A stretch of DNA of 64,000 nucleotides from sequence record NZ_CP025192.1; one strand, written 5' to 3'. Position numbers and translations under genes: made by a program. The notes below the pieces were generated by a model. The model was not told where the DNA came from and did no database searches. It worked only from the letters and a program-made list of their open reading frames with translations. Positions 730-56,546 of this stretch are shown piece by piece (positions within the stretch are counted from its first letter, which is position 1; each line of letters opens with the position of its first letter). The DNA is from a plasmid.

Positions 730-1907
730 GGCTGCGTCCTCGCTGTCTGCTCCTCGGCATGCTGGAGGAGCGCGATGCGAACGGCCCGCTCCGCCTCGTC
801 GAGCTGCGGTGGGAACAGGGGACAGCGAGCCTGGCGCTCGGCCTGCCAGTGCGAGCGCGAACCGACCGCCTCGACCCGTGGATTGGGCTGGCTGTTCTGC
901 CCGGGGCCGTGGCCGGGGAAGCCCAGCGAATGCAGGGCGTACCAGAGGGAGCGGTCGAGCAGCTTGAGGCCGTTGAACTGCGCCGGGGCGAGGATGCCGG
1001 ACTCCAGCCGCGCGGCGTTGAGCAGCCCCATCAGGGCGGTGGTCTCGTAGGCGTGGCGGGCAGCCGCCGCCTCGGCCGCCTCGTGCGCCGCTCCCTCGGC
1101 CAGCACGGCATCGGCCCGCAGCAGCACCGCCGGAGGGACCGGCAGGCTCTCCGCAGGGCCGGTGGGCGACGGATCACGGGCCTGCCCCAGCGCCTCGGCG
1201 AGATCGCCCAGCAGCTGCTGGCATTCCTCGCGCCGCCCGCTTAGGTGCAGCGCGAAGGCCGCGAAGATGACGCGCCCCGCCGGGGAGGCCCGGCGCGGGC
1301 CGCGCCAGACGGGGCCGAGCTGAAGGAGCAGCGCCTGCCGCAGCCTGGTCCCGTCCACCTCTCCCTTGGCATCGAGGCAGAAGCGGCCGGCCCATTCCTG
1401 GACGTGCAGGGCGGGATCGGCCGGCCGAGGCGCCTTGGGAGCCGGATCGACGAGCTTCAGGTGCCGGCCGAGCATGGCACTGGCCGCCCGGTAGAAGCGG
1501 GCCTGCTCGCGCAGCAGGCCGTCGAGGTCGAAGCGCCGCCGAAAGCGGCCCGGCGGCGCCCCGACGAAGCAGAGCACGGCCAGGGCGCCGATCAGCCCGG
1601 CCGCCGGCCACCGGAAGAAGCCGTTGACCTGCCCGCACATCGCCACCAGGCGCTCGAAGCTGACGGTCGCGTAGTTGCCGTGGATCACGCCCTGCCGCAG
1701 CGCCTCGTAGCCGTCGGTGAAACGGCCGATGAAGGTCATCTTGCGGATCTGCAGCCAGGCCACCGCCTCGACCACCTCGCGGTGGTAGCTCGACCACAGC
1801 ATCCAGCCGAGGAAGCCGCAGCCGATGACGATCACGATCAGGCTGAGGAAGACGTAGTCGTCGCTCGACGCCCAGCCGCGGCGGGCGCCACCTCCCGCCG
1901 TGCTCAT
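726..1907 (-). CDS. dotM: DotM/IcmP (TrbA-like) type IVB secretion inner-membrane component.
   Basis: 393 aa; N-terminal TM helices (DYVFLSLIVIVIGCGFLGWMLW, LIGALAVLCFVGA) followed by a large soluble domain; size and position within a Dot/Icm cluster; ATGA overlap with the upstream gene. Confidence 0.45.
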   Translation of the reverse strand: MSTAGGGARRGWASSDDYVFLSLIVIVIGCGFLGWMLWSSYHREVVEAVAWLQIRKMTFIGRFTDGYEALRQGVIHGNYATVSFERLVAMCGQVNGFFRWPAAGLIGALAVLCFVGAPPGRFRRRFDLDGLLREQARFYRAASAMLGRHLKLVDPAPKAPRPADPALHVQEWAGRFCLDAKGEVDGTRLRQALLLQLGPVWRGPRRASPAGRVIFAAFALHLSGRREECQQLLGDLAEALGQARDPSPTGPAESLPVPPAVLLRADAVLAEGAAHEAAEAAAARHAYETTALMGLLNAARLESGILAPAQFNGLKLLDRSLWYALHSLGFPGHGPGQNSQPNPRVEAVGSRSHWQAERQARCPLFPPQLDEAERAVRIALLQHAEEQTARTQP

Positions 1908-2356
1908 GCCGGGGCTCCGAAGAACACGATGTTGGCGTGGTGCCGTCTTGGCTCGATGCCTTGCCGCTCCGCCGGCTGGGTGCCGTCATAGCCTGGCAGC
2001 GCCGCGAGATAGAGGTTCAGCGGCCAGACGATGCCCTCGGGCATCGCCCGGGCATCGACCTCCATCACCTCGCCGCCGATCCGTCGCCGGAAGCGGCGCC
2101 GGGTGGCGAGGGCGGCGATCGAGGACAGCTCCATCGCGAAGCGCACCGCCGCGTTGTCGAGCGGCAGGCCGGTGTGGTCGCGCATCCAGACCAGCACCGG
2201 GGACAGCGCCCGGATCAGCCGGGCCGCCAGGCTGCGCCAGGGGCCGTGGCAAACCGCGCGGAAGCCCGTCATGCGGCGCAGCAACGCGAGGCTGACCGCC
2301 TCGGCGTCGCCGTCGCGCAGGGCATCGGGCGGGCGGTCGGGAAAGCAGGCGCTGGC
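1904..2356 (-). CDS. Hypothetical protein (150 aa).
   Basis: In-frame ATG at 2356 with a GGAGA ribosome-binding site; high GC3; conserved upstream box at about 2397-2408; stop overlaps the dotM start. Confidence 0.4.
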   Translation of the reverse strand, partial: ASACFPDRPPDALRDGDAEAVSLALLRRMTGFRAVCHGPWRSLAARLIRALSPVLVWMRDHTGLPLDNAAVRFAMELSSIAALATRRRFRRRIGGEVMEVDARAMPEGIVWPLNLYLAALPGYDGTQPAERQGIEPRRHHANIVFFGAPA

Positions 2357-2415
2357 CATGCGGGTCTCCGGTCTCATACGCGGAATCTGCCCTGGCTCCT
2401 TGCGAACGGCGCCGC

Positions 2416-4779: not shown

Positions 4780-5741
4780 CGGCAGCCTGCCCCAGGCTGC
4801 CAGCGCCGGATATTCGCCTGCAGACCGGGCTGCTCGGTGATGCGCACCACCCGGTCGCCGATGTTCAGCCGCGACCGGCCGCCCTCGGTGTTGCGGGTCT
4901 CGAAGGCGACCCGCGGCTCCTCCACCAGCCCGGCGCGCAGCAGCACCCGGTAGCGGGCCATGCCGACGATGTCGCGCTGCAACCGGCCGAGATCGGAGAG
5001 GAAGATCGTCACCGCCTGCTTCTCGCCCTGGGCCCAACCCTCGGCGACGCCACGGTTCCAGTAGGCCACCTCCTGGCGGGTGCGCGGCAGTGCCGCGTCG
5101 GCCGGGCGGGCCGGGCTGCCCCAGGCACGGACCAGGTAGGAGCGCCAGTCCGGCGGCGCGGAGGTCAGCTGTGCCTCGCGGGTGATCTCGAAGATGCAGG
5201 AGGTCTCGCGCGCCACCTGGCCGTTCTCGCCCAGCGCGAAGGCCATCTGCGCCTCGGAGACGATGGGCGGGCGCATCAGCGTCTGGCCGCCGCCCACCGG
5301 CAGCACCAGGGGGCGGAAGTCGTAGGTGGCGGTGAGCTGGGCCTCGTAGCGGCGCAGCATCTCGTTGATGGCGAAAGAGCGGGCGGCGAGGCCGCCCTGG
5401 GCGCCATAGGTCATGGCGGCCTGCCGGAGCACCTCGGCGCGGCCGGTCTCCAGCCCGTCGCCGGGCAGGTCGCCCGGGCGGGCGGCCTGCAGCGCCTCCA
5501 GCGAGGGCGGGGCGTCGCCACCCTCCACCACCGGCATGTTGCCGGCGCCGGTGATCGGCTGGTTCAGCTGGCTGGCGAGCGACCGGGCGGCGGCGTCGTA
5601 CTGCGCCTCGTTGGGCATGGGCGGGCTGGGGAGGAGGCGCACCGAACCCTCGGCACGCACGCCAGGGGCGAAGGCCAGGGCGAGGAGGGCGGTCGCGGCG
5701 AGCAGCGCCGGGCGCCGCGGGGCGGGGCGGGGCTCAGACAC
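4776..5741 (-). CDS. dotC: DotC-like secretion-system lipoprotein/periplasmic protein.
   Basis: GTG start at 5741 (verified on the DNA) lies 7 nt after the dotD stop; signal peptide ...LLAATALLALAFAPGVRA; dotD-dotC-dotB order as in Legionella region I. Confidence 0.55.
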   Translation of the reverse strand: MSEPRPAPRRPALLAATALLALAFAPGVRAEGSVRLLPSPPMPNEAQYDAAARSLASQLNQPITGAGNMPVVEGGDAPPSLEALQAARPGDLPGDGLETGRAEVLRQAAMTYGAQGGLAARSFAINEMLRRYEAQLTATYDFRPLVLPVGGGQTLMRPPIVSEAQMAFALGENGQVARETSCIFEITREAQLTSAPPDWRSYLVRAWGSPARPADAALPRTRQEVAYWNRGVAEGWAQGEKQAVTIFLSDLGRLQRDIVGMARYRVLLRAGLVEEPRVAFETRNTEGGRSRLNIGDRVVRITEQPGLQANIRRWQPGAGCR

Positions 5742-6216
5742 GATGCACCACCTGGACCGTGCGGGAGGCCGGATCGAGCTGCACCGTGGCATAGGCCCCG
5801 GCCTGCTCGCCGAGGGCGGCGAAGGCGTCCACGACCGTGGTGGCGGGCAGGTTGAGCGAGACCGGCACGGGCTGCGGCCGCTCGACTCCCTCGACGCTCG
5901 ACACCACCACCCGGTAGCCCACGACATCGGCGAGCTTGCGCACGCCATCGGCCAGCGGGCCGTTCCAGGCGAAGGCGATGGGACGCTGCAGCTCCTCCGG
6001 CACCACGCGGCCGCGACGGGCGGTGAGGTCCACCCGGCTGACGCCGCCGAGCTGCGAGAGCTGCTGCCCCACCTGCTCCATCGACTGGCGGAGCGCGATC
6101 TCCGGGTTGGGCATGCCGGGGGTTGCGATCTCGGCCGTGGGGCCGCCCGTGGCGCAGCCCGCGAGGCCGACCAACCCCATCAAGGCCAGCATCAGCCGGC
6201 TGTTCATCCTCGCCAT
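5734..6216 (-). CDS. dotD: DotD-like outer-membrane lipoprotein (160 aa).
   Basis: Lipobox LVGLAGC after a basic N-terminus; 160 aa, matching DotD size; directly upstream of dotC. Confidence 0.6.
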   Translation of the reverse strand: MARMNSRLMLALMGLVGLAGCATGGPTAEIATPGMPNPEIALRQSMEQVGQQLSQLGGVSRVDLTARRGRVVPEELQRPIAFAWNGPLADGVRKLADVVGYRVVVSSVEGVERPQPVPVSLNLPATTVVDAFAALGEQAGAYATVQLDPASRTVQVVHRV

Positions 6217-6338
6217 GCGGGACCTCCGTTCCTATGCGTGAAGCATGGAGCGGAGCGATGCGAACGGGAGGCCTCCCTTTGCAGCTGCGGGCTCGTTCGC
6301 CGACCTGTCAGGCTGACGAGGACGGGGCTACGAATCCT

Positions 6339-6355
6339 GTGTTCGCATCGAACAC
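6339..6355. promoter_or_regulatory. Perfect palindrome GTGTTCG-CAT-CGAACAC between icmB and dotD; a full-site version of the recurring upstream box.
   Basis: Seen directly in the sequence; shares GTTCGCATCG with the box. Confidence 0.4.
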
Positions 6356-6373
6356 GGCCCCTATGCGACGCGA

Positions 6374-9300
6374 CTATTCGGCCGCCAGCTTCTGGGAAGG
6401 CTGGCCATGATCGGGCGCCACGTCCCGCAGGACGATGCCGAGGCCTTTGCCGTCGATCAGCTCGGCGGCGATCTCGTCCACCACGCCGGCTTCGGCGCGC
6501 GTGTCCAGCTCGCCGAGCTTGAGCCGCTCGTTCTTGCGCCGCTCGATCTCCTTCACCGCCGAGCCGCGCTTGAACACCTTCGCCAACCGCCGCAGCGCCT
6601 CCGAGAAGCCCAGGGCCGCATAGAGGCGGTTGCGCAGGCTGGTGTCGCCCGGCGTGGTGCTCAGCGCCCACAGCTCGACCGGGCCCAGCGAGTTGATGAG
6701 CATCTGCTCGTACTTGGCACCGCCGGCGGTCAGCACCGCGAGGAAGGGAGCCCCGTTCGGTCCCGGGCCGTTGAGCGCATAGCGCACGACATCCGCACTC
6801 GCGGCCGACAGGTCGAAGCGCGTGATGATCTCTTCGCGCTCCTTCTCGTCGCCGGTCCGCAGGATGAAGCGCCCGGTGCTCTGGGCGACGATGGCCTCGC
6901 CCATGTCCTCCAGCCGCTGCGACGAGAAGCCGAGCTGGATGTTGTGCTTGCGGCCCTCGCGCACGTCGAGCTCGGCCTGGGCGCGGACCAGCGGGCTGCC
7001 CCTGGTGCGGTGCCACTCGTCGTAGTCGAGGCGCTTGACCGCCTCCATCACCTCCTGGAACCGCTCGCGGTGGTAGTCGCGCACCGGCTCGGGGACGAAC
7101 TGCGCGTAGTCCGGGTGCAGGAAGAAGTTCCGCGCCAGCAGATGCCGCGCCAGCATGTACATCAGCTCGGTCTGCCGGTTCGCCGCCGCCGAGCCGGCCG
7201 GAGCCACCGCGGCGAGGTCGAGCACGATGATGCGGGCCGGGCCGAAATCCAGGCGGGTTGGCCGGCTCAACGAGGGAAAGCGCCGGATCAGATCGTAGAC
7301 GTAGCGCTCGAACAGGGTGCAGGCGGACTCGCTGGTCTCGGCGATATGCAGGTCCTTGAAGGCGTCGCGGATCTGGTCCGAGCGGGCGGCGGCGATCAGG
7401 TCCTGCAGCACCGGCACGGCATGGCGCTGCGCTACCTCGGCCAGCCGCATCTCGCCGGCGCCGATCAGCGCATCCACGGCGTCGCGCCACCAGGGGGTAT
7501 CGCCGGGCAGGACGAGCCCGTGGCGGCGCAGCGCGGCATCCACCTCCGGCTCCACGCCGGCCCGGTAGGGCTTCGGCGAGCCGCCGGTGACGTCGGTGCA
7601 GAGCCGGTAGGCCTCGTCGATCACGGCGCCGATCAGCTGCGCCATGCCCTCGAAGGGAGTGGAGGTATCCGGGGGCGTGGTGGCCAGCGCCAGGAAGTTC
7701 TGCAGGAAGGACCGCTCCAGTGGCAGCGGGTAGTGGCAGCCGACCTGCAGGTCGAAGATATTGACCTCGTAGCCCGGCCCGAACTGCATGGTGACGAAGA
7801 TCGCCTCGTGCTCGCGCGCGGGGCCGAGCGCCTCGCGCACCAGCCGCACGAAGCCCTGCGCCGAAGGGCCGATATCGGCCTTGCCGATCAGCGGCAGCCT
7901 GGCGCCCTTGACCCCGAGCACGGCGGGGCTGAGCACCAGGCCGAGGTTGATGCAGTTGGCCAGCACCGACTTGCCGGAACCGGGCGGCGCCACGAAGACG
8001 TCGCAGACGAGCGGGCGCTTGTCGCCGCCGGAGGGGTCGTAGGGCCAGATGGCGCCGTCGGGCCGGCGGAACAGCACCGAGCCCTGCTCCCAGGGCGAGG
8101 CGGTGCGGTTCCAGGGCAGCATGGCGAAGGCGTCGCCCAGCAGGGCGATCTGCGGCGTGCCGGTCGAGGTGAGCGACAGGCCGGGGACGCTGGACAGCGC
8201 CCCCTCCAGCGGATCGCCGGCGATCGGGGTGGTCTTGCAGTTGCCCCAGCCCTCGATGCGCTGCGCCAGGGTCGAGGCGCGACGGCGCAGCAGCCGCATC
8301 TCGCCGGCCGGGGCCCAGGTCGCGAAGGAGGCGCGCAGCCGCACGCCGATGTGGTTGTCCTCGTTGCGGGCCTGCCGCAGGGCGTCGAAGGCGCGCCGGA
8401 TATCGGCGTTGCCGGGGAACATCGAGAAGAAGGTCGCGGCGACCTCCTTGATCTGCATGGCGTTGCGGCCGCCGCCCTCGATCACCACGGCGCTGCGCCA
8501 GGGGATGCGGTCCTGGCCCAGCCGGGCGGAAAGCTCGACGAAGGGACGCGGATCCTCGGGCCCCACCGCCATGTCCACCGGGGCATAGTCGTGATCGCCG
8601 ATGCGGACGCGCTGGCCCCCCAGCGTCTCGGCATCGGCATGGAACATCTGCTCGGCCACGGCCGGCCACAGCATGCCGGCGGTGGGGCTCTCGCCGCCAT
8701 CGGGATCCTCGGTCGCCCGCGGCATCACCCGGTCGCCCGGCAACGTCGCCTTCCAGTCGGAGCCGGCGGTTTCGCGGTAGACGGATTCGCGGATCACCCT
8801 GAGCGCCTCGTGGGCATCCAGTTCGCGGGTGGCGACGTCGTTGTTGCCGAGCGACGCGACGACCCGCGAGACGAAGGCCGTGTGCCGCGCCGCCATCACC
8901 TCGGAGCGCAGGTAGTAGCGCTGGCTGTTGCCGGCGCGCGGCCCCTCGCGCGAGAGGACCTTCTGCTCCTCGGCCATCTGCCGGCGCTCCTCCTTGGTCA
9001 GGACAGCGCGGCGGGTCCAGAGCACGTAGTAGGCGGCCTCCCAGCGCATGATCCGGGGCCACAGCGCCGCGCGTTCCTCGAGCACGTCCGAGACGTTGAG
9101 ACCGAGTTCCCGTGCGATGGTGCGGCAGGAGGCGAGGTTCAGCCGCTCGATCTCGACCCCGGCCATGTCCGGGTCGGAGACGTACCAGCCGACAATGGCG
9201 TGGCCACGGTCCTCCAGCGCGCCCGCCAGGTCGATGCGCTGTGCCGTGGCGATGCGCTCGACGTCGTCGCGCTTGGCCATCCGCCGCATGCCCTCGATAC

Positions 9301-9439
9301 GGACCACGCTGAGGTAGTCGCATTGGCGCGTCACCAGGGCGTCGCCATGGGCGGTCTCGATCTCGCAGAAGGCCGGCAGCGGCTGGCGGAGAACCAGCGA
9401 CAGGCCGGCGAGGCCACGGGTGATGGCGGTGGCGATCAT
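6374..9439 (-). CDS. icmB: DotO/IcmB (TraU-like) VirB4-family T4SS ATPase, about 1022 aa.
   Basis: Walker A FVAPPGSGKSVLAN; length typical of IcmB/DotO (about 1000 aa); start refined to MIATAITRG... (codon 170 of the 1190-aa ORF), overlapping the icmJ stop. Confidence 0.75.
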   Translation of the reverse strand: MIATAITRGLAGLSLVLRQPLPAFCEIETAHGDALVTRQCDYLSVVRIEGMRRMAKRDDVERIATAQRIDLAGALEDRGHAIVGWYVSDPDMAGVEIERLNLASCRTIARELGLNVSDVLEERAALWPRIMRWEAAYYVLWTRRAVLTKEERRQMAEEQKVLSREGPRAGNSQRYYLRSEVMAARHTAFVSRVVASLGNNDVATRELDAHEALRVIRESVYRETAGSDWKATLPGDRVMPRATEDPDGGESPTAGMLWPAVAEQMFHADAETLGGQRVRIGDHDYAPVDMAVGPEDPRPFVELSARLGQDRIPWRSAVVIEGGGRNAMQIKEVAATFFSMFPGNADIRRAFDALRQARNEDNHIGVRLRASFATWAPAGEMRLLRRRASTLAQRIEGWGNCKTTPIAGDPLEGALSSVPGLSLTSTGTPQIALLGDAFAMLPWNRTASPWEQGSVLFRRPDGAIWPYDPSGGDKRPLVCDVFVAPPGSGKSVLANCINLGLVLSPAVLGVKGARLPLIGKADIGPSAQGFVRLVREALGPAREHEAIFVTMQFGPGYEVNIFDLQVGCHYPLPLERSFLQNFLALATTPPDTSTPFEGMAQLIGAVIDEAYRLCTDVTGGSPKPYRAGVEPEVDAALRRHGLVLPGDTPWWRDAVDALIGAGEMRLAEVAQRHAVPVLQDLIAAARSDQIRDAFKDLHIAETSESACTLFERYVYDLIRRFPSLSRPTRLDFGPARIIVLDLAAVAPAGSAAANRQTELMYMLARHLLARNFFLHPDYAQFVPEPVRDYHRERFQEVMEAVKRLDYDEWHRTRGSPLVRAQAELDVREGRKHNIQLGFSSQRLEDMGEAIVAQSTGRFILRTGDEKEREEIITRFDLSAASADVVRYALNGPGPNGAPFLAVLTAGGAKYEQMLINSLGPVELWALSTTPGDTSLRNRLYAALGFSEALRRLAKVFKRGSAVKEIERRKNERLKLGELDTRAEAGVVDEIAAELIDGKGLGIVLRDVAPDHGQPSQKLAAE

Positions 9440-10095: not shown

Positions 10096-10111
10096 GGTGG
10101 GAGGCCCCGGC

Positions 10112-10546: not shown

Positions 10547-10647
10547 GATGATCGCTTTCCTGTTCAGGGCCGGGGCGCCGTCGGCGACCCTGCGATGATG
10601 CTGTGCGAGGTCCTTGCGAACGGCGCGCAGGATTTTTCGCGCGATCC

Positions 10648-19026: not shown

Positions 19027-19044
19027 ACGGCACGGAGCGATCCC

Positions 19045-20244: not shown

Positions 20245-20255
20245 GGAGCTTTCCC

Positions 20256-21692
20256 ATGTCCACCACCCTATCCGACGCGCCACGCCCAGCGGCGCGTGGT
20301 CCCGATCCGCTCCGTGAGCTGTTCGACCGGATGAACGAGGTGCGTGCCACCCTCTCCGGGCACGATCCCAGGCTGAGCCGCCAGATCGAGGAGGTCACCC
20401 GGCTGCTGCACCAGCCCGATGTCGTCCGCGACGAGGCGCTGCGGACCCGCGCTGCCTACGCACATCAGGATTTCTCCCGCCTGGCCGGTCCGGTCGGCGG
20501 CGTGCCGGAGGGTCTGCGTGCCGAACTCGGCCGCCTTGCCAACTCGGCGCCGGGGCTGGAAAACGAGCGTATCCGCGACCTGCTGCGCGAAGTGCCGGAC
20601 CTGCGGGATCGGCGCCTCGCCCATGATATCCGCACCCTCGCCGTCGTCACGGGCAAGGAGGGTGGCGACCAGTACCGCCCCGACGTCATGGATAAGGTGG
20701 AGGCGCTGGAGCGGCGGGTGATGACGCTCTCGCCGACCTTCGGGAGTGCTGCCGCCCGGCACGCGCAGCCTGACCTGGCCGCCGGCGGGCCGCAGGCGAC
20801 CGCAACCCCAGCCGCCGCGGCGTCCACGGCGCGGACGCCCCAGCCCGAGGAGAAGCCGACCGTGCCGGCTTCGCCGTTGGTGCAGTCCAGCGTCTCCCCA
20901 GGCGAAGGCGCGCGCGCACCGCGACAGCCCGAGACCGGCCAGCAGGCTACCCAGCAGCCTACCCCGGCCCCGGCCGCCATTCGTGCGGCCGAGGGGCAGG
21001 CCCAGCCGGCTCAGCCCGCGCTGGGTGCCCGCGATGCAGGTCCGGTCGAGCGGCTGGTGGCTTCGATGGTGCCCCCTCGTCCCGCCAGCCCGCCTCCCTG
21101 GGAGCCGCAGCCGACCCCGATCACCGAGCGGATCGGGAGCTACCTGGCCAACCGTGCCGACAGCAAGGCACTGGAGACCGCCGAGGCGTCCGGGCAGCGC
21201 GCCGTGGATGCTCTGCGGGGCTTCGCCCAGGGGGCCGGCGCGGCGGTGATGGCTCGGATCAATGAGGCCGCCCGCTCCGATCCCCGCAGCATGGAGGGGG
21301 TGCTGGCCGAGATGCGCGAAGGTGGACGGCATGCCGAGCTGCGCACGCAGTTCAACAACGCCCTCGTCCAGGAGAAGGGTCTGGCCGCCGCTTACGATGC
21401 CGCCGCCTCGGCCGTGAAGCAGTACGGGACCGATCGCCAGGCCGCCGAGGCGGTGATCCTCAAGCGATCCGAGCCGGCGGCCCTGGCCGGGCGCTTCGAG
21501 CGGCTCGACGCCGCCATCGGCGAGGCCGCGTCCCACCTGCCCAGCCGCCAGGAGGGGAAGAGCGTGGTGGACGAACTCGGCCAGAAGGTCGCCGAGCTGG
21601 TGCGGCGAGCGGCCGACGCGGTTCGCAACGTCTTCCAGCAGGACCATCGCCAGGGCGTCTCGGCCGCCTCATCCCCGTCTCCCAGCCCATAG
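20256..21692 (+). CDS. Hypothetical Ala/Pro-rich protein (478 aa) in the traX position.
   Basis: ORF track; GAGG ribosome-binding site before the ATG; no recognisable domain. Confidence 0.35.
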   Translation: MSTTLSDAPRPAARGPDPLRELFDRMNEVRATLSGHDPRLSRQIEEVTRLLHQPDVVRDEALRTRAAYAHQDFSRLAGPVGGVPEGLRAELGRLANSAPGLENERIRDLLREVPDLRDRRLAHDIRTLAVVTGKEGGDQYRPDVMDKVEALERRVMTLSPTFGSAAARHAQPDLAAGGPQATATPAAAASTARTPQPEEKPTVPASPLVQSSVSPGEGARAPRQPETGQQATQQPTPAPAAIRAAEGQAQPAQPALGARDAGPVERLVASMVPPRPASPPPWEPQPTPITERIGSYLANRADSKALETAEASGQRAVDALRGFAQGAGAAVMARINEAARSDPRSMEGVLAEMREGGRHAELRTQFNNALVQEKGLAAAYDAAASAVKQYGTDRQAAEAVILKRSEPAALAGRFERLDAAIGEAASHLPSRQEGKSVVDELGQKVAELVRRAADAVRNVFQQDHRQGVSAASSPSPSP

Positions 21693-21749
21693 GCTCATTC
21701 GCGTCGCCCTCTCCCATCCTCGTCTGCAAATTCCGGCCGCGAGGATGCG

Positions 21750-24071
21750 ATGCGACGCCCAACCCTGTTTCTGGCCCTGGCCACCCTGGCGCCGGTCCTG
21801 CTCCTCGCGGGGCCGGCGCTCGCCCAGGGGACGGGCGTGAACCTCAGCTGGTCCGCCCTTGATCCCGGTGACGACTGGGCTGCCATAGTCATCCGCTCCG
21901 TCTTCCCGATCAATGGCTCGGCCGGAACCGTCAGCACCGGCAACGCCGCCACGGTGATCGGCACCCTGGTCCGCTCCCTCACCGGCTTCGTGGCGGCCAT
22001 CGCCATGTTCTACCTCGTCTATTCCATGGTGATGCAGATCTGGCGCGGTGCCGAGACCTCGCGCCTGCTCACCGACGGCATGAGCGGCATGATGGCCCTC
22101 CGTCTCGGGGTGGCGGCGATCTTCATGTTCCCGCTGGCCAACGGCTTCTCCGCCGGGCAGGCCGCCGTGGTGCAGGCCTCGATGTGGGGCATCGGCATGG
22201 CCAAGACCGTCTACACCTCGGCCGTCACGGCGATCGGCGCCGATGCGCGCGTCATCGCCGATCCGATTGTCCCGGGCAGCCGCACCATCGTCGCCGGGCT
22301 GATCCGCAACGAGTTCTGCCGCGCACTCGTCAACGCCGCCGCCAACAACCCCAACCTGGTGCCGGCGCCGGGCGCCATCGCCTCAAGCGGGGTCGGCAGC
22401 GTGCCGGCCTTCGAGACCTGGGCCTACCGCCTGTCCAGTGGCAACGAGAGCGGCGCCCCGGCCTGCGGCACCGTCACCCTGGCCCAGCCGGCCAGCACCA
22501 ACACCGTCGCCGGTGTCGATGTCGGCATGGTCGACCAGCAGCGCCGGATCCTGAACAGCGTCGTCACGGGCAGCATCCGGCCGCAGGTCGAGAGCGCCGC
22601 GCAGGCCTTCTACGCCACCCGCCAGGCGTCGGCGCTGCAGCCACTGCTGGGCGTGCTGACCAGCGCCACCAGCCAGTACAACAGCCAGCTCACGGCGGCA
22701 GCCAGCGGTGCCATGAGCCGCATCCGCGGCTCCCTGCAGGATGCCCGCGGCAGCGGCGCCACCCCGGACGCCACCGCGATCCGCCTGAGCGCGCTCGGAT
22801 GGTCGGCCGCCGGTGCCTACTATCTCGAATTCTCCCGCCTCAACGGCGCCACCCTCTCGCTGATGAGCGGCGTACCGCGCGTCGAGCGTCCCTCCTATCT
22901 GGGCCTCGGCCCGGCCCTCACCGCCGATGTGGCGCCGCTTTCCGCTGCCGCCGAGGCGTTCATGGAGCGGGTCAGCGCCTACGTCGCCACCACCGACCAA
23001 GCCAACACGCCCTTCGGCGGCTCGGGCCTGTTCTCCGGCGCCTCGCCGGCCGAGGACGGCGCCGGCATGATGGAGCGGGTGTTCCGCTCCCTGGGCCTGA
23101 GCGAGCGGATCCTCGGCCTCGTCACCAACTACTTCGTCACCCCTGGTACCTTGGTCTGGATCGACCCGTTCGGCAGCCTGATGCAACTCGGCCACGCCAT
23201 GGTCGCGGCCGGTATGGGGGCGCTGGGGCTGGCGGGGATCGGGGTGGGCGGGTCCAATGCCGTCGGCACCGCCCTGGGCGGCGTGCCGCTGGTGGGTGGG
23301 GTGCTGGCGGCCAGCTTCAGCGGATTGGGCAAGGCGTTGGAATTCCTCGGCCCGGCGATCTTCGCGCTGATCTCCGGCCTGCTCCTCCCCGGCCTGACCA
23401 TCGCCTTCGTGCTGCCGCTCATCCCCTTTCTGATCTGGGTCGCCGGCGTCGCCGGCTGGCTGATCCTGGTCTGCGAGGCGGTGATCGCGGTGCCGCTGTG
23501 GATGCTGGCGCACATGACCATGCGCGGCGAGGGCCTGCACGGCCGGGCCACCGAGGGATACTCGCTGCTGTTCAACGTGCTGTTCCGCCCGGTGCTGATG
23601 CTGCTCGGGCTGTTCCTCGGCTACTTCATCTTCGCCAGCATGTCCTGGCTGCTGCGGCTGAGCTTCGGGGTGGCGGCAGGCTTCGTGCTGGGCAACGGCT
23701 GGATCGTAACCAACGTGCTCGGGGTCGTGGTGCTGCTCTGCGTCTTCGTGCTGGCCCACGTCGTCCTGGCGCTGCTGTCCTTCCGCATGATCTCCCTGGT
23801 GCCCCACCACGTCCCGCGCCTGATCGGCTTCCTGCCGGCGAACCGGGTCGACATGGACGGCTTCAGCCGGGATGCTGCGCTGGTTGGGGCGGCAGGGGCA
23901 TTGCAAAACATCGACGGTGCCGCTCGAAGGCTTGGTGGTTCGGCTCGCAATTCTGGTGATCGAACCCTGGCGCCGACGGCAATAGCTGGACCGCAAGGGC
24001 GGGCAGCAAGTAAGGAGATGGACTCTACCCTCCGGGCATCGACAGAGATCTCCGGCGCTAGGGATGAATGA
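21750..24071 (+). CDS. dotA: DotA/TraY-like large polytopic inner-membrane protein (773 aa).
   Basis: Signal peptide plus TM1, a large periplasmic domain (about 400 aa), then about 8 C-terminal TM helices; length close to IncI TraY (about 745 aa); box variant TCATTCGCGTCG about 45 nt upstream. Confidence 0.5.
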   Translation: MRRPTLFLALATLAPVLLLAGPALAQGTGVNLSWSALDPGDDWAAIVIRSVFPINGSAGTVSTGNAATVIGTLVRSLTGFVAAIAMFYLVYSMVMQIWRGAETSRLLTDGMSGMMALRLGVAAIFMFPLANGFSAGQAAVVQASMWGIGMAKTVYTSAVTAIGADARVIADPIVPGSRTIVAGLIRNEFCRALVNAAANNPNLVPAPGAIASSGVGSVPAFETWAYRLSSGNESGAPACGTVTLAQPASTNTVAGVDVGMVDQQRRILNSVVTGSIRPQVESAAQAFYATRQASALQPLLGVLTSATSQYNSQLTAAASGAMSRIRGSLQDARGSGATPDATAIRLSALGWSAAGAYYLEFSRLNGATLSLMSGVPRVERPSYLGLGPALTADVAPLSAAAEAFMERVSAYVATTDQANTPFGGSGLFSGASPAEDGAGMMERVFRSLGLSERILGLVTNYFVTPGTLVWIDPFGSLMQLGHAMVAAGMGALGLAGIGVGGSNAVGTALGGVPLVGGVLAASFSGLGKALEFLGPAIFALISGLLLPGLTIAFVLPLIPFLIWVAGVAGWLILVCEAVIAVPLWMLAHMTMRGEGLHGRATEGYSLLFNVLFRPVLMLLGLFLGYFIFASMSWLLRLSFGVAAGFVLGNGWIVTNVLGVVVLLCVFVLAHVVLALLSFRMISLVPHHVPRLIGFLPANRVDMDGFSRDAALVGAAGALQNIDGAARRLGGSARNSGDRTLAPTAIAGPQGRAASKEMDSTLRASTEISGARDE

Positions 24072-24074
24072 CCG

Positions 24075-24524
24075 ATGAACGATGACGGCGAGAGCCAAGG
24101 AATGAGCGGAACGGCCGGCTACCTGCTAGGCAGGATGTCGGCAGAAAACGCTCGTTCGCGTTCGGATTGGGTCGATAATCTTGTGGCCCGTCGGCGGCGC
24201 CCGGAAGCGCGTTTCTTCCGTGAAGCTGATGTACATGCGAAGATCGCTGAATGGCAGGCTGCGCTCGCCTCAAGGGACGCCATCATCGATCAGCTACAGG
24301 AGCATGCTGCTGGTCTCGCCAGCGAGCGGGATCAGTGGCGTGACTACGCGAAGGCGATCGAGGGCGAGCGGGAGGAACTGAAGGAGCAGTTCCGCAGCCT
24401 GACCGTGAACGCCAACCTCATGGTCGAGCGCCTCGACGAGTACGACAGGGCGAACGAGGCGCTGGAGGCGGAAGTCGAGGCGCTGCGCGCCGAGATCGCC
24501 CGCCTCAAGGGCAGTGGCGGGTAG
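24075..24524 (+). CDS. Coiled-coil protein (149 aa).
   Basis: Heptad-rich C-terminus (EALEAEVEALRAEIARLKG); starts 4 nt after the dotA-like stop. Confidence 0.35.
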   Translation: MNDDGESQGMSGTAGYLLGRMSAENARSRSDWVDNLVARRRRPEARFFREADVHAKIAEWQAALASRDAIIDQLQEHAAGLASERDQWRDYAKAIEGEREELKEQFRSLTVNANLMVERLDEYDRANEALEAEVEALRAEIARLKGSGG

Positions 24525-24580
24525 CGCAGGCCGTTCGCAACGATACTGGGCAGCATGGGGCCGCAACCAGGACAGGCCCC

Positions 24581-24898
24581 ATGCCCTACGCTCGAAACCT
24601 CCTCCTCGCCGCTCTCGCGTCGATCCCACTCGCGGCCTGCAGCAGCGGCAACATCCGCACCGCCGGCAGCTACAGTGCTCCGGCCGCGCCGCAGGTCCAG
24701 AATCCCAACTACGATCCCTATGCCGCTCCGGGCACCGTCAATGCCACCTGGGCGCCGCCCGTGCTCAACCGTAACGGCACCATCGTGAAGCCCAACGATC
24801 CGCGCGGGGCGATGGCCGGCAGGCCGGACTACGAGCATGCCCCGTGGGCCACGGGCGCGGCCGGCGGTGCCACCTACGCCCCACCCGGCACCTTCTGA
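24581..24898 (+). CDS. Small lipoprotein (105 aa).
   Basis: Lipobox SIPLAAC; conserved box CCGTTCGCAACG about 40 nt upstream; sits in the position of entry-exclusion genes downstream of traY in IncI plasmids (speculative). Confidence 0.4.
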   Translation: MPYARNLLLAALASIPLAACSSGNIRTAGSYSAPAAPQVQNPNYDPYAAPGTVNATWAPPVLNRNGTIVKPNDPRGAMAGRPDYEHAPWATGAAGGATYAPPGTF

Positions 24899-24921
24899 CG
24901 ACCTGGCGGCCGGTGCGGCGG

Positions 24922-25305
24922 CTATCGGGCCGGCCGCACATCCGTGCGGCTGAAATCGTCGCCGACGTAGAGCAGCGGCGCGTCGTGCTCGATCGCCAGC
25001 ACGTAGGCGAAGCAGTCGCCGAAGTTCAGCCCCGCCGGGTGGACGCCCTTGCCCCAGCGCGCATAGGCCTCGGCCATGCGCCGCGCCGTCCCCGGTGTGA
25101 CGCTCGCGACCTCGAAGCCCAGGCCCTCGACCAGCTGGCGCATCTCCACCCCGAGATCGCGCCGGCCCGCCACGATCAGCGCCTCCGCCATGGTCCCGGC
25201 CGAGATCGCCAGGGCGTCGGCCGCCTCCAGCACATCCATGCAGGCCTCGGCCTCGGGCTCGTCGAGCAGGATCGCCAGCAGCGCCGAGGTGTCGACCGCG
25301 ATCAT
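24922..25305 (-). CDS. vapC: VapC-type PIN-domain toxin (127 aa).
   Basis: MIAVDTSALLAIL...; PIN acidic residues; start overlaps the stop of the upstream antitoxin. Confidence 0.65.
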   Translation of the reverse strand: MIAVDTSALLAILLDEPEAEACMDVLEAADALAISAGTMAEALIVAGRRDLGVEMRQLVEGLGFEVASVTPGTARRMAEAYARWGKGVHPAGLNFGDCFAYVLAIEHDAPLLYVGDDFSRTDVRPAR

Positions 25306-25559
25306 CGCGGCAGCCCGGCCTCGTCGTACAGATCGTCCTGACTGCGGGCGGCGCTCACGCCGGCCCGTGCCTTGGCGGCACCGACGCGGCGCAGCTCCTC
25401 CATCAGGGCGCGGCGTCCGGCTGCATCCGGTGTCCGGTGCACCGGGACCAGGCGCACGGCGGCGCGGCCATGACGCGTCAGCACGACCTCGTCGCCGGCC
25501 TCGGCCCGGCGCACCAGCTCGGTCAGCTGCCCCTTCGCATCCGTCACGGAGACCTGCAC
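25302..25559 (-). CDS. vapB: Phd/YefM-family antitoxin (85 aa).
   Basis: MQVSVTDAKGQLTELVRRAEAGDEVVLTRHGRAAVRLVPV is the Phd/YefM fold signature; directly upstream of the PIN toxin. Confidence 0.65.
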   Translation of the reverse strand: MQVSVTDAKGQLTELVRRAEAGDEVVLTRHGRAAVRLVPVHRTPDAAGRRALMEELRRVGAAKARAGVSAARSQDDLYDEAGLPR

Positions 25560-25644
25560 GATCGAACCCCAGCAGAAAGCCTCCCGGCGAAATAGACCAT
25601 CGGGTGGTCCATTTCAACGATGCTGGCGCTGAGTGGTATCGGGG

Positions 25645-26199
25645 TCAGCCGGCGCTCGGCCAGAATCGGTCGGCCGATCGGAGGTACTCCCCGGCCGAGC
25701 CCAGCCGCCGCGTGCGCAGCTGCCAGTTCGCCCAGGCATTGCGGAAGGCGAGCACGAAGAACGCGGCGCAGAAGGGCAGGAACTGCACCGCCGCCCAGAA
25801 GCGTCCCTGGCCTGCGGGAAGCACCGTCATCTGCCAGGTCCATAGCCCCAGCGCGGCCCAGCCGGCCGCGAAGCAGCCCCAGGCCACCCGCGCCGTCTGC
25901 CGGCGCCGCCGCAGCCAGCGCCGCTTCAGCTCGAACTCGGTGAGGCCCATCGCGAAGGCCGTCGCCCCCGGGTCGAGGCGGCCGTCCTCGTCGGCGATCG
26001 GGCCACGCACCGGGGCCGGCTCGCGCCGGATCGCGGCGACGAGGCCCCGGACCAGCCCGTAGCCGGACCGGATCTCGGCCACTCCGGTCGTCTCGGCGGC
26101 CCTGCGAGCCGCCCAGCGGGGGCCGGCGAGTAGCCATCCGAAGCGCCGACGACTACCAGGGTGGTCGCCCTGCAGCCCGGGTCCCAGGTCGATGGCCAT
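25645..26199 (-). CDS. Hypothetical inner-membrane protein (184 aa).
   Basis: Two to three C-terminal TM segments; 4 nt downstream of the DsbC-like gene (operon). Confidence 0.35.
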   Translation of the reverse strand: MAIDLGPGLQGDHPGSRRRFGWLLAGPRWAARRAAETTGVAEIRSGYGLVRGLVAAIRREPAPVRGPIADEDGRLDPGATAFAMGLTEFELKRRWLRRRRQTARVAWGCFAAGWAALGLWTWQMTVLPAGQGRFWAAVQFLPFCAAFFVLAFRNAWANWQLRTRRLGSAGEYLRSADRFWPSAG

Positions 26200-26202
26200 G
26201 GC

Positions 26203-27369
26203 TCAGCCCCCGGTTGCGGTCGCGACCAGCGCCTCGAGGTTGTTGGGCAGTCCATCCGTCCGCCCCTCCGTGCCATCGGCCCGGCGCCAGACCAGCGTCG
26301 GCGTCCCGCGCAGGCCGATCGAGGCCGCTGCGGCCCCATTCTCCCGCAACCGCGCGGCCGCTTCCGGCGCCGGCGGGGCCCGCAGGTCGCCCCGGCTCCA
26401 GGCGGCGATCATCGCTTCCTCCGAGCGGCTCAGCATCGCGAGCGCGTCGGCGGTGCTCCGCCCGGCATTGTGGTGATCGAGGATGGCCACGGGGATCACC
26501 GACAGGTGCAGCCGGCCGGCCGCGACCAGCGGCTGCAGGCGCCGCAGGGCCTGGACCGAGTAGCCGCACTGCGGATCCACGAACATCCAGACATGCGGCG
26601 CCCCCTCGGGGCCCGCAGTGCCGGCATGGGCTCGCTGGGCCACCGCGACCGGGCTGGCGGCCGGCGCGACTGCCCCGCCGCCGGCACCTTGAGCCGGCCC
26701 GCCGGCCGGCTGCGTCGCACCGGGCGCGACGTCCCCGATGGTGACGGTCGGGATCGCCCCTTCGATGCCCGCCACATGATCGCGGGTGAGGTTCTTGCCC
26801 GCCGTGTCCCACATCACCCCGGGAATGACGCGCTCCCCGTCGGGGGTCGCGTAGAATACCTGGAAGGCGTCGCCGCTGCGCAGCACCACGCTGCGAAGGC
26901 CCTCGCGCTCACCGAGATCCGTGACGCCCGCGCCCCCGATCTCACGGAGACGCGCCAGGGTCAGGTCCACCGGAAAGCCCGCCACCATGGCCCGTCCGGA
27001 AGGCAGCACCGAGAGCAGCATGAACTCGGCGCCGGAGCGGGCCACGACCAGGCGCAGGCCATGGCTCAGCCCCAGGTCCTGCAAGGTGGCACCGGCCTGG
27101 GACACGCGCTGCAGCACCGGCACCGAGAGATCTCCGCCGGGCGTCGCCACCGTGGCAGGAGCTGCTGACGGCGCAGCCGCCGGCGCCGCGGCACGCTGGA
27201 CCGCGGGCGTGGGCGCGGTTGGCCAGGCCTGGGGCGCGGCGGATACCGGAGCCGGGAGGGCCAGGGTGGGAGGCGCATCGGGCCCGGCAGAGGCGGGGCA
27301 GAGGGTCTGCGCCATGGAGATGGCCGGCAGGCCAACCAGGGCGCAGGTGGTCAGGAGGATGCGTCGCAT
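26203..27369 (-). CDS. Secreted DsbC/DsbG-like thioredoxin-fold protein with a CxxS active site (TrbB-like position), about 388 aa.
   Basis: Signal peptide MRRILLTTCALVGLPAISMA; thioredoxin-fold motif FVDPQCGYSVQAL (CGYS instead of CGYC); Pro/Ala-rich linker; conserved box CCGTTCGCATCG about 42 nt upstream. Confidence 0.5.
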   Translation of the reverse strand: MRRILLTTCALVGLPAISMAQTLCPASAGPDAPPTLALPAPVSAAPQAWPTAPTPAVQRAAAPAAAPSAAPATVATPGGDLSVPVLQRVSQAGATLQDLGLSHGLRLVVARSGAEFMLLSVLPSGRAMVAGFPVDLTLARLREIGGAGVTDLGEREGLRSVVLRSGDAFQVFYATPDGERVIPGVMWDTAGKNLTRDHVAGIEGAIPTVTIGDVAPGATQPAGGPAQGAGGGAVAPAASPVAVAQRAHAGTAGPEGAPHVWMFVDPQCGYSVQALRRLQPLVAAGRLHLSVIPVAILDHHNAGRSTADALAMLSRSEEAMIAAWSRGDLRAPPAPEAAARLRENGAAAASIGLRGTPTLVWRRADGTEGRTDGLPNNLEALVATATGG

Positions 27370-27401
27370 GGGTCTCGTCCGGTGCTGATGACCGGCCGAG
27401 C

Positions 27402-28199
27402 CTAGGAAGGGGCGATGCGAACGGGGCTGTCGTGATACCCCGCTGCCGGGGCAAGGACGACGGGCTCCATGTTGTCGAGCAGCTGGCTCGTGGCCGACAG
27501 GACGTTGAACAACACAGGGGTGAACCAGGGCCGCGTCTCGAAACTCTCGCAGAATTCCAGGCCGCAGAGGAGCACGGCGGCCAAGGCGGTGATACCCGCG
27601 ACGGTGATCGGCGCGGCGAGGGCGAGCTCGTCCAGAACCTCGTCCAGAGGTCGCTGAGCATCGAGGTAGGCCTGCTCCTCGGCGGCGACGTCGCCGGCAC
27701 CTGCCCGCATGAGCGAGCATGCCTGCCGCGAGAGCGCCACGAGATGCAGATCCGCCGACCTGTCGTTCGCTGCCTCGATCACAGCGGCGTCTGACAGAAT
27801 TCGTGACAGGTGAGCATCGAGCGCCACCATGTGGGCGGTCGTCAGAGCCGCGAGACCCTCGTCCGGCTCCTCGTCCCGCCGCATCGAGCAGAGGGTGAGC
27901 AGAATGTCGCTTTGCAGGAGCAGTCCCCGCGCCGAGGTGGGCGACAGGCTCGCCGCATGAAACACAGCGCGTCCCAATCTCTTCTCGACCGCGATATGCG
28001 AGGCGCTGTCTGACTCGCCCTCGTTCGGCCCCGCCCTGCGACGAACCGTCGCCGCCTGGCGGCTCCAATGTTCCCGGACCTGTCCCAGCAGGGCGATTTC
28101 ACGGCGCAGGCTCTCCAGTGCCCATTCGTCGCCGCGTGTACCGATCGGGCCGGGGAAGGTCGTGATCTTCTGTCCGGCCCTGGTCGGGAACATGGTCAC
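27402..28199 (-). CDS. Hypothetical protein with a C-terminal TM segment (265 aa).
   Basis: ORF track; high GC3; 4-nt overlap with the upstream ORF. Confidence 0.3.
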   Translation of the reverse strand: MTMFPTRAGQKITTFPGPIGTRGDEWALESLRREIALLGQVREHWSRQAATVRRRAGPNEGESDSASHIAVEKRLGRAVFHAASLSPTSARGLLLQSDILLTLCSMRRDEEPDEGLAALTTAHMVALDAHLSRILSDAAVIEAANDRSADLHLVALSRQACSLMRAGAGDVAAEEQAYLDAQRPLDEVLDELALAAPITVAGITALAAVLLCGLEFCESFETRPWFTPVLFNVLSATSQLLDNMEPVVLAPAAGYHDSPVRIAPS

Positions 28200-56544: not shown

Positions 56545-56546
56545 GG

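Follow-up and report, generated by a model that had tools for sequence, protein, structure and literature searches.

A stretch of 64,000 nucleotides (nt) of the plasmid record NZ_CP025192.1 has been analyzed (the window; coordinates are those of the window unless another record is named). Its region 1-28200 is identified as a type IVB (Dot/Icm-like, mating pair formation type MPF-I) transfer cluster of a Roseomonas mucosa plasmid, because it encodes the Pfam domains DotM, lytic transglycosylase, DotB, DotC/TraI, DotD, DotG/TrbI, DotH/IcmK, DotI/IcmL, IcmW and an XRE-type helix-turn-helix (HTH), to which the annotation of the sister plasmid p2-HV1 (NZ_CP034926.1, 180 kb) by the Prokaryotic Genome Annotation Pipeline (PGAP) adds IcmT, DotO, DotA and the coupling protein. 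Plasmids of Roseomonas mucosa and Roseomonas sp. FDAARGOS_362 match the interval 14000-24000 with 100% identity, and a second set of Roseomonas plasmids is 82% identical over the same interval. The overall GC (guanine plus cytosine) content of the window is about 70%. The transcription units comprise leftward genes from approximately 17444 and rightward genes from 17543, and two genes encoding HTH proteins lie at the head of the leftward part:

15664-16767 (-): gene of a three-HTH protein of 367 amino acids, directly upstream of icmL, no box before it
16950-17444 (-): XRE-type HTH gene (HTH_3, E=1.6e-11)

The original prediction, made from the letters of the window, described a 12-nt box repeated upstream of the transfer genes and co-oriented with the downstream gene. 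This repeated box is real, with 11 clear copies at gene junctions and a twelfth one inside icmL. We predict that the box constitutes the upstream half of a non-canonical, element-specific promoter shared by the transfer genes, and that, in a family of alphaproteobacterial type IVB clusters, the transfer genes form a regulon defined by this conserved two-part promoter signal; the probability of this reading, which is based on comparative sequence analysis, is estimated at about 0.7.

Copies of the box in the transfer cluster

Sites were scored with a positional weight matrix (PWM) covering the box and a hexamer downstream of it. The following sites are observed in the window (site, strand, 12-mer, hexamer, position relative to genes, PWM score):

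759-784 (-): box CCGTTCGCATCG at 773-784, hexamer CAGCAT at 759-764; inside the 3' end of dotM; PWM 21.2
2384-2409 (-): box CCGTTCGCAAGG at 2398-2409, CAGATT; before the open reading frame (ORF) 1904-2359; PWM 16.6, orthologues 19-20 in L002-L004
6242-6267 (-): box CCGTTCGCATCG at 6256-6267, CATGCT; before dotD (5734-6216); PWM 20.7
10598-10623 (-): box CCGTTCGCAAGG at 10612-10623, CAGCAT; before ORF144 (10112-10546); PWM 19.7
12613-12638 (-): box CCGTTCGCGTCG at 12627-12638, GATCCT; before ORF465 (11187-12584); PWM 24.3
15015-15040 (-): extra box-like copy TCGTTCGCACCA at 15029-15040, GATCGT; in the 3' end of icmL (last 90 nt), 65 nt before dotH; PWM 24.1
15625-15650 (-): box CTGTTCGCATCA at 15639-15650, GAGGAT; before icmL (14970-15599), heading icmL-dotH-dotG; PWM 18.3
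17495-17520 (+): box CCGTTCGCATCG at 17495-17506, weak hexamer CAGTGG; before ORF143 (17543-17974); PWM 11.3, no T at +25
17992-18017 (+): box CCGTTCGCGTCG at 17992-18003, CAGCCT; before the icmW-like gene (18047-18505); PWM 25.4
21695-21720 (+): box TCATTCGCGTCG at 21695-21706, CATCCT; before dotA (21750-24071); PWM 24.1, 19-28 in 27 of the 27 loci with dotA
24531-24556 (+): box CCGTTCGCAACG at 24531-24542, CAGCAT; before the small ORF105 (24581-24898); PWM 20.4
27399-27424 (-): box CCGTTCGCATCG at 27413-27424, TAGGCT (its TAG terminates the upstream gene); before the DsbC-like gene (26203-27369); PWM 20.6, 18 in L003 and L004

Here and below, L001, L002 and so on are labels of the related loci compared. 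The 12-mer CCGTTCGCNNCG occurs seven times in the window, compared to 0.78 occurrences expected, and none of 100 shuffled sequences reached seven; the remaining copies are retrieved when two mismatches to CCGTTCGCNNCG are allowed. With the complete matrix, 12 sites of the window score at least 16 and 20 sites at least 13, while Markov-1 random sequences yield 0-7 sites scoring at least 13. The copies reported originally are thus genuine, but some of their positions were shifted, e.g., the first one occupies 773-784 (-) rather than 768-779.

Ten sites have 36-43 nt between the 3' end of the box and the start codon, ORF144 has 65 nt and dotH 79 nt; in 10 of the 12 window sites the start codon lies 22-29 nt past the hexamer. 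The site at 759-784 heads a unit of hyp177 (196-729) followed by the coupling protein gene, and its orthologous site is retained in L001 and L003. The site at 6242-6267 heads dotD-dotC-dotB-icmT-ORF-transglycosylase, and the box upstream of DotD is present in all 23 related loci having this gene (PWM 16-26). The site at 10598-10623 has a longer leader, with 51 nt between the hexamer and the GTG start codon, and is kept at PWM of at least 13 in 30 of 31 loci with ORF144. The rightward genes are headed by the site at 17495, which lies next to the XRE gene in a divergent gap of 98 nt; its hexamer (17515-17520) is the weakest of the set, CAGTGG in the window and CAGCAA in L002-L004, with no T at +25. 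The promoter before ORF143 may be regulated differently, e.g., jointly with the divergent XRE gene.

The rule that each gap longer than 40 nt holds a box, proposed in the original prediction, breaks down at 16768-16949 (upstream of the three-HTH, or GcrA-like, gene), 25560-25644 and 28200-28244, all of which are box-free. Its counterpart, that tightly coupled junctions have none, fails as well, the boxes at 773 and 27413 being situated within the 3' end of the upstream gene at packed junctions. An oppositely oriented copy at 16985-16996 does exist, but is not retained in the paralogue clusters. The copy inside icmL is also seen at 10560 in L005 and L008, 18754 in L041, 11917 in L042, 2356 in L043, 3642 in L044 and 10334 in L045; it overlaps a conserved C-terminal peptide of IcmL, and may be either a real internal promoter or a coding by-product.

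In the part of the window outside the type IV secretion system (T4SS), from 28 to 64 kb, the sole site scoring at least 16 is a TTCGTG variant at 50428. Over the whole 180 kb of p2-HV1, 12 sites score at least 18 within the cluster, and just two sites exceed 20 elsewhere. The first of these (p2-HV1 18816-18827, minus strand) is in the gap upstream of a DUF3991/TOPRIM primase gene or operon with the annotated start at 18607, and the first ATG follows approximately 57 nt after the start of the box, where no gene is annotated. The second one (p2-HV1 152101-152112, minus strand) has a small nuclease gene and a GTGTTC-N5-GAACAC palindrome in its vicinity. These two copies suggest that the regulon may extend to DNA-processing genes.

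Conservation and geometry of the two-part signal

For comparison we used 33 related clusters fetched via IcmL (49-76% identity) from Acetobacteraceae, Beijerinckiaceae (Methylocapsa, Roseiarcus, Rhodoblastus) and a few contigs binned as Acidobacteriota, plus three Roseomonas paralogue clusters that are 82% identical, and scored the box-plus-hexamer matrix within 220 nt upstream of every homologue of each cluster gene. More than 40 related clusters, with IcmL 49-85% identical, have the signal upstream of the same set of genes. High PWM scores are observed in nearly every locus before DotD, ORF144, ORF465, IcmL, ORF143, IcmW, DotA, ORF105, the DsbC-like gene and ORF 1904-2359, whereas scores before DotM, transglycosylase, IcmT, DotB, DotC, DotO, DotG and both HTH genes remain at the background level (mostly not exceeding 8), with the exception of the XRE gene, scoring 11-15 in L005-L010 and L036. 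Positions of the box are conserved at the same non-coding sites while the flanks diverge, and the sequence between the box, the hexamer and the start codon otherwise varies freely. Judging by these comparisons, plasmids related to this one in other bacteria of soil and skin maintain the same box arrangement.

The consensus of the signal is yyGTTCGC(A/G)yCG followed by 8 unspecified bases and a hexamer sANNNT, with A at +21 and T at +25. The second conserved block begins exactly 8 nt past the 12-mer, and the commonest hexamers are CAGCAT, CATCCT and GATCCT. For 239 occurrences of TTCGCGC[CG] in the 33 distant loci, A at +21 is present in 66% and T at +25 in 58%, compared to a background of approximately 17%; in these loci hexamer positions 3-5 are weakly conserved, and positions 2 (A) and 6 (T) are conserved far more strongly. 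Nothing is conserved upstream of the box in the distant loci, the information content at -3 to +2 of the box being below 0.35 bit.

The -10 element of sigma-70-family promoters is defined by the same two bases, A at position 2 and T at position 6. Both bases are present in the hexamer consensus and in all 15 short-type copies upstream of icmL, described below, while no TTGACA-like -35 element is seen 16-18 nt upstream of the hexamer. Scanning of 9000-28500 with the sigma-70 consensus yielded no match at any box site, and the lone match corresponds to the chance level.

The spacing between hexamer and start codon peaks sharply at 6-8 nt, 23-30 nt and approximately 41 nt across the loci. The first class is formed by icmL in 15 loci (L012, L014, L015, L017, L019, L020, L022-L025, L028, L030, L033, L035 and L037), where the conserved N-terminal ATG of icmL (M-Q/E/D-N-Q...) directly follows the hexamer with no ribosome-binding site; PGAP gives the same icmL start in Methylocapsa pRX1. 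Hence, icmL is apparently leaderless in the Beijerinckiaceae-type clusters, and in Roseomonas it has a leader of approximately 18 nt with a ribosome-binding site. The order hexamer, 6-8 nt, ATG is that of a leaderless mRNA, and, as the icmL ATG is so close to the hexamer without a ribosome-binding site, the hexamer is probably a -10 element. If A at +21 corresponds to -11, and hence T at +25 to -7, the box would extend from about -32 to -21, occupying the downstream edge of the -35 position together with the upstream part of the spacer. Transcription starts, placed approximately 7 nt past the hexamer, are predicted at the following positions:

Minus strand: 752, 2377, 6235, 10591, 12606, 15618, 27392
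Plus strand: 17527, 18024, 21727, 24563

The fixed two-part geometry, the leaderless layout of icmL and the positional conservation favor the internal promoter element, which had been listed as one of the alternatives in the original prediction. The motif is of practical use for revising the annotated start codons and operon limits of these clusters. For example, PGAP starts ORF465 (minus strand) at the equivalent of 12407 in p2-HV1, and the longer form is annotated in NZ_CP025190; the shorter annotation is probably wrong, as ATG 12584 is located 28 nt past the hexamer, is preceded by AGGA and fits the conserved layout.

The box also has a cluster-specific variant at its flanking positions, common to all 5-12 promoters of a given cluster and differing even within the genus Roseomonas:

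TTCGCATCG: clusters of R. mucosa and R. gilardii
TTCGCGCCG: other Roseomonas species
CATTCGCGCAA: pRX1
GAGTTCGCGCCG: Rhodoblastus

As the change is concerted over many independent sites and differs within one genus, this feature suggests that the element itself encodes the protein reading the box.

Hairpins, the candidate reader and alternative explanations

At many of the promoters the hexamer and the bases following it are complementary to the downstream ribosome-binding site or start codon. The most prominent hairpins in the window are:

12583-12624 (-): GACGATCCTGC...GCAGGATCGTC, the 5' arm being the hexamer and the 3' arm the ribosome-binding site of ORF465; -31 kcal/mol; pairing segments GATCCTGTGGG/CCCACAGGATC
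21712-21750 (+): CATCCTCG...CGAGGATG, the hexamer pairing with the ribosome-binding site of dotA; pairing segments CATCCTCGCGGG/CCCGCGAGGATG
24548-24586 (+): GCATGGGGCC...GGCCCCATGC, the hexamer pairing with the start codon of ORF105; -22 kcal/mol; pairing segments CAGCATGGGGCC/GGCCCCATGC

The hairpin of ORF465 has a compensatory change from C-G to T-A in L002 and L004, and that of ORF105 is maintained in 15 loci with differing sequences. For the dotA hairpin, 80.8% of cells are paired over 19 clusters, compared to 32-47% with the partner columns slid, and 9 of 14 pairs have changed on both sides; none of 500 shuffles attains the covariation score. Mean stability z relative to controls is -4.9 for dotA, -4.0 for ORF105, -3.6 for the DsbC-like gene and -2.3 for ORF465; at the dotD, icmW and ORF143 promoters little or no hairpin formation is seen (mean z about -0.5 to -1). 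These hairpins might serve as insulation against read-through translation, a possibility for which we see somewhat less than an even chance. Such a hairpin would form only in read-through RNA, since its 5' arm is missing if transcription starts approximately 7 nt past the hexamer; the placement of this arm upstream of the start site depends on the predicted promoter.

The same hairpins could be taken as a sign that the box acts at the RNA level, so that on a polycistronic mRNA it would be a site of an RNA-binding protein or of processing 8 nt before a hairpin, with binding or cleavage freeing the next ribosome-binding site and switching on translation. The strong hairpins with compensatory changes, extending from the hexamer to the Shine-Dalgarno (SD) sequence or AUG, agree with such an element, as do the linear and directional nature of the box and its tight distance to the start codon, and the combination of box and hairpin recalls the boxA-spacer-boxB layout of nut sites. 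Unlike in nut sites, however, the hairpins vary in sequence from site to site, their pairing partner is the nearby SD or AUG, and about 12 copies are present per cluster. Further, in all 15 short icmL copies an SD sequence is missing and the ATG is too near the hexamer to accommodate a regulatory hairpin, and yet the box, its 8-nt distance to the hexamer and the two conserved bases (A at +21, T at +25) are present. The box is also kept at the promoters with weak or absent hairpins listed above, the hairpin register varies by gene while the spacing between the box and the hexamer is constant, and the copy at 17495 heads an operon in a divergent gap. The much stronger conservation of hexamer positions 2 and 6 compared to 3-5 also argues against it, and scanning of 1-30000 with the covariance models of Rfam 15 gave no match at E up to 1. 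An RNA-level element is hence unlikely, and the mRNA processing site suggested originally finds no support as the primary role, though real RNA hairpins overlap the signal.

For the preferred reading, a promoter activated through the box, the best candidate reader is the three-HTH protein encoded at 15664-16767, as nearly all loci have a syntenic homologue of its gene, no box ever precedes this gene, and the family profile of the protein matches a GcrA domain; this assignment is tentative, with chances falling just short of even. Four of four distant family members looked up are also encoded directly upstream of icmL. The family has no annotation and comprises 457 representative proteins at E of at most 0.001 in an exhaustive profile search, which was needed because a word-index protein search gave just seven relatives. 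In an AlphaFold2 model (pLDDT, the predicted local distance difference test, about 80-90) the protein has three-helix HTH bundles at amino acids 27-67, 88-125 and 262-299, with disordered linkers between them and a low-confidence C-terminal segment of 60 amino acids. The second HTH resembles the DNA-binding domain of GcrA, and the third one, in relatives, region 4 of sigma-70. A profile of 65 family members matches the GcrA DNA-binding domain with E=2e-6 (5yiu, 7ye1); sub-threshold Pfam GcrA matches are found in 24 of these 65 relatives, and Sigma70_r4_2 (sigma-70 region 4) matches in 16. Five of the GcrA matches, inspected singly, score 21-25 bits, below the cut-off of 26.9 bits, and cover only profile positions 2-76. 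Thus, the proposal of a GcrA-like binder in the original prediction holds at the level of the family (E=2e-6, 24 of 65, synteny), but the window protein alone has no Pfam match. That the protein works like GcrA is a lead, and we do not file it as a member of the GcrA family, because it has no Pfam match of its own and no detectable sigma-interacting domain, and the box contains no GANTC.

In the proposed mechanism, the hexamer would act as the -10 element of promoters having no canonical -35 element, with transcription starting approximately 7 nt past the hexamer, and about a dozen such promoters would split the type IVB cluster into units switched on together. The element-encoded three-HTH protein would bind the box as a monomer in one orientation and help the host RNA polymerase to use these promoters. 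A read-through transcript arriving from upstream would fold and hide the downstream ribosome-binding site or start codon; a transcript begun at the box promoter would lack the 5' arm and hence be translatable, so that translation of these genes would depend on activation of their own promoter. Taken together, this may amount to a private promoter code, in which a monomeric three-HTH cofactor combining GcrA-type and sigma-region-4-type domains redirects the polymerase via an 8-12 bp spacer box, the protein and the box co-evolve, and the hexamer doubles as an arm of a silencing hairpin, each gene group being translated only from transcripts begun by the element's own activator; this joint reading is speculative, with odds of roughly one in three.

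Several observations weigh against this picture. The 8 nt between the box (-32 to -21) and the hexamer do not correspond to the spacing of any known sigma factor, the hexamer starts with C or G instead of T, and at 17495, where the copy heads an operon, the hexamer is the poor CAGTGG. Moreover, as the hexamer belongs to covarying hairpins, its CCT preference could partly reflect RNA pairing and not polymerase contacts. As for the reader, apart from the lack of a Pfam match in the window protein alone, a shallow profile of seven sequences gives only E=1.3 to GcrA (5yiu), no GcrA sigma-interacting domain is seen, and the C-terminal half of Pfam GcrA is unmatched in the five members inspected. 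The Foldseek comparison of the full-length model with PDB yielded only generic HTH matches with E of at least 1, being uninformative for the whole chain because the model consists of three small bundles joined by disordered linkers. Finally, no correlation between residues of the HTH recognition helices and box variants is observed: 'YAL' versus 'YAQ/WAK' follows the ATC variant in R. mucosa and R. gilardii clusters, but this is broken by L011.

An alternative sigma factor, either of the host extracytoplasmic function (ECF) type or plasmid-borne, could read the box as a -35-type element, given the directional two-part motif with fixed spacing, the absence of canonical -35 or -10 elements, and the sigma region 4-like third HTH of the three-HTH relatives. 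However, the annotations of the cluster and of the 180-kb p2-HV1 contain no sigma-factor gene, and none was found among the window ORFs in Pfam scans, while the three-HTH protein has no region-2-like domain. The distance to the hexamer is 11 nt from TTCGCG, or 14 nt from CCGTTC, shorter than the usual 16-17 nt of ECF promoters. The cluster-specific variants within one genus argue against a host factor, and a further objection to this explanation is the presence of the box in two alphaproteobacterial families and Acidobacteriota-binned contigs. We regard this explanation as rather improbable. Other known elements have been considered and rejected: the alphaproteobacterial LexA box (GTTC-N7-GTTC), to which by eye only the copy at 773 is near (GTTC-N7-GCTC); the -24/-12 layout of sigma-54, with no GG or GC pair at the correct spacing; and EcfG (GGAAC-N16-CGTT, with the box as -10), as nothing is conserved upstream of the box.

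The box had originally been interpreted as a half-site of a dimeric operator GTTCG-N3-CGAAC. This model is not supported, since an inverted partner is lacking at all conserved copies, the box has a strict direction, and the 8-nt spacing is fixed; GTTCG-N3-CGAAC itself is not enriched, with five matches (one exact) compared to 2.7 expected. The palindrome that had inspired it is a separate feature:

6339-6355: GTGTTCGCATCGAACAC, hairpin GTGTTC-N5-GAACAC, after dotO

It is real and conserved, but as an independent hairpin and not as a dyad of the box. Its likeness to the box is best considered accidental and strain-specific, because the loop sequence varies between clusters (GATGC in the window; AGGCT, GATGT and AACGT in others). 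GTGTTC-N5-GAACAC is located approximately 18 nt past the dotO stop codon in every Roseomonas cluster (L001 8337-8353, L002 9213-9229, L003 9137-9153, L004 5254-5270, L005-L010 near 19300), is absent from non-Roseomonas loci, and has two further copies elsewhere on p2-HV1 (L038 14992-15008 and 30115-30131). It could be a short terminator-like hairpin or an operator of a dimeric regulator.

A weakened, monomeric form of the half-site idea would make the box an operator at which a repressor such as XRE controls each internal promoter. The XRE gene adjoins the divergent promoter region, XRE repressors are common in mobile elements, and RNA polymerase could be obstructed at a box that overlaps the core promoter. 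Against it stand the lack of a dyad at the conserved copies, the non-enrichment of GTTCG-N3-CGAAC and the distinct nature of the lone palindrome, and also the fact that promoters without a recognizable -35 element besides the box need activation and not repression. The XRE gene is, moreover, absent from the Beijerinckiaceae clusters that keep the box, and hence XRE, named as a binder in the original prediction, cannot be the universal reader; at most, it is possibly an upstream switch in some lineages. The probability of a repressor operator is accordingly low.

An exact metagenome scan with CCGTTCGCGCCG-N8-CANCCT gave 120 matching stretches, and among the 80 of 120 listed, two belong to a type IVB secretion system (T4BSS) and 78 are unrelated to T4SS, mostly inside coding sequence. 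The pattern alone is not a specific marker in very large databases, and among these 80 of 120 matches we see no evidence for a host-wide regulon. Although these 78 matches and the overlap of the copy at 15029 with a conserved IcmL peptide would be expected of a GC-rich 12-mer recurring by chance or via conserved peptides, such a compositional or coding artefact is scarcely credible overall and is refuted for the 11 junction copies by the enrichment (7 versus 0.78), the two-part geometry, the co-orientation upstream of starts and the conserved non-coding positions with diverging flanks. About 25 of the 80 listed matches (of 120) are one conserved coding stretch (ccgcgcagcttCAGCCTgatcgcgatccacaagcacggc) of an unrelated widespread gene (L049, L057, L058, L067, L079, L080, L084, L087, L088, L094, L096, L098-L101, L103, L105, L109, L114, L116, L117, L123 and L124).

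Relation to known systems and neighboring DNA

GcrA of Caulobacter crescentus is a monomeric sigma-70 cofactor (PMC4647560, PMC9976885), whose upstream sites are centered at -20 ± 1 and -30 ± 2, in the spacer between -35 and -10 (PMC9976885). The promoters predicted here are similar in having an asymmetric monomer-type site between -35 and -10 (about -32 to -21 for the box, depending on the predicted start), in the family-level match of the candidate reader HTH domains to the GcrA DNA-binding domain, and in the alphaproteobacterial host range. On the other hand, GcrA reads methylated GANTC (YGAKTCG), which is not contained in the box consensus; it has one DNA-binding and one sigma-interacting domain, compared to three HTH and no detectable sigma-interacting domain in the three-HTH protein; its promoters retain both -35 and -10, while the box promoters have no -35; and it is chromosomal and controls the cell cycle, while the three-HTH gene travels with the transfer cluster. 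If the candidate is confirmed, GcrA would shift from a cell-cycle speciality to a broader class of polymerase cofactors borrowed by mobile elements.

A shared activator box before transfer operons is of a known kind. SetCD boxes in the SXT/R391 integrative and conjugative elements (ICEs), AcaCD boxes in IncC plasmids and BisDC promoters in ICEclc have a directional box at or near -35 before most transfer operons; the element-encoded activator, a FlhDC-like heteromer, switches the regulon on and itself lies outside the regulon, and the transfer systems are of the MPF-F, MPF-G and MPF-T types. The cluster studied here likewise has the same directional box before most transfer operons and none before the regulator genes, but differs in the box sequence and in being type IVB, and no FlhDC-like activator pair is annotated in the cluster or p2-HV1 or found in Pfam scans of the window ORFs. 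In the middle promoters of phage T4, the MotA box (a/t)(a/t)(a/t)TGCTT(t/c)A is centered at -30, approximately 12 nt from a sigma-70 -10 element, and AsiA remodels sigma region 4. The similarity consists in a -10 element combined with a non-sigma box that replaces -35 at a shorter fixed distance, and in an element-encoded reader (a candidate one here), while the host and the element are unrelated and no MotA or AsiA homologue is seen.

The hairpins resemble the fold-back inhibition reported for IS10 and IS50 (Davis, Simons and Kleckner 1985; Krebs and Reznikoff 1986), where read-through transcripts are said to hide the transposase ribosome-binding site: in both cases the 5' arm is upstream of the element's own start site (predicted here), the 3' arm covers SD or AUG, and only outside transcripts would fold, leaving those begun at the element's own promoter as the sole translated ones. 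Here, unlike in these insertion sequence (IS) elements, many internal promoters of a single cluster have such an arrangement, the probable -10 hexamer serves as the 5' arm, and the starts are predicted. In Legionella, Dot/Icm genes are also preceded by regulatory boxes, the tandem PmrA box cTTAATatT and the CpxR box GTAAA-N6-GWAAA, read by host-chromosomal response regulators acting mostly on effector genes, with CsrA being involved as well. The consensus sequences differ, and in terms of sequence the box is, as originally stated, neither a PmrA nor a CpxR box.

To our knowledge, essentially no regulation has been described for type IVB conjugation outside Legionella and IncI plasmids, and in the literature we found no description of the box, the promoter architecture or the candidate reader. 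What appears to be new is the box in a spacer without -35, the hexamer doubling as an arm against the ribosome-binding site, and the candidate reader. The result would be a concrete regulon for widespread alphaproteobacterial plasmids and integrated elements, including plasmids of the human skin bacterium Roseomonas mucosa, with a defined promoter signal, about a dozen co-regulated units across two bacterial families, and a candidate activator from an unannotated family. The hairpins, in turn, hint at a general means by which gene clusters could remain insensitive to transcription entering from outside.

The neighboring DNA, from 28 to 64 kb, contains IS elements, integrases, GmrSD and a BREX-like (bacteriophage exclusion) defense island. 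The latter (44432-60302) encodes a GmrSD-type endonuclease, a PglZ protein, an SNF2-family helicase, a DNA methylase and a DUF6079 ATPase of 1251 amino acids, the methylase being located in a low-GC segment (dip at 52001-54000, 0.51); the island is bordered by integrases and an ISL3 element, and neither it nor the rest of 40-64 kb, IS copies excepted, has a match in the plasmid collection searched.

A FIST-domain sensor gene, with a coiled-coil ORF 3' of it, adjoins the cluster in Roseomonas plasmids (window 29456-31620, plus strand; L003 31578-33877; L004 30589-32888). The two genes could pass a signal to the transfer switch; in most other loci this region is beyond the fetched range. The gap between dotO and dotD (6217-6373 in the window, L001 7473-8374, L002 8181-9276) is a hot spot for toxin-antitoxin insertions, with a PIN/Phd pair in p2-HV1, a VapC pair on the other strand in R. 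gilardii and none in the window, L003 and L004. The box 5' of dotD is retained in all these clusters despite the insertions.

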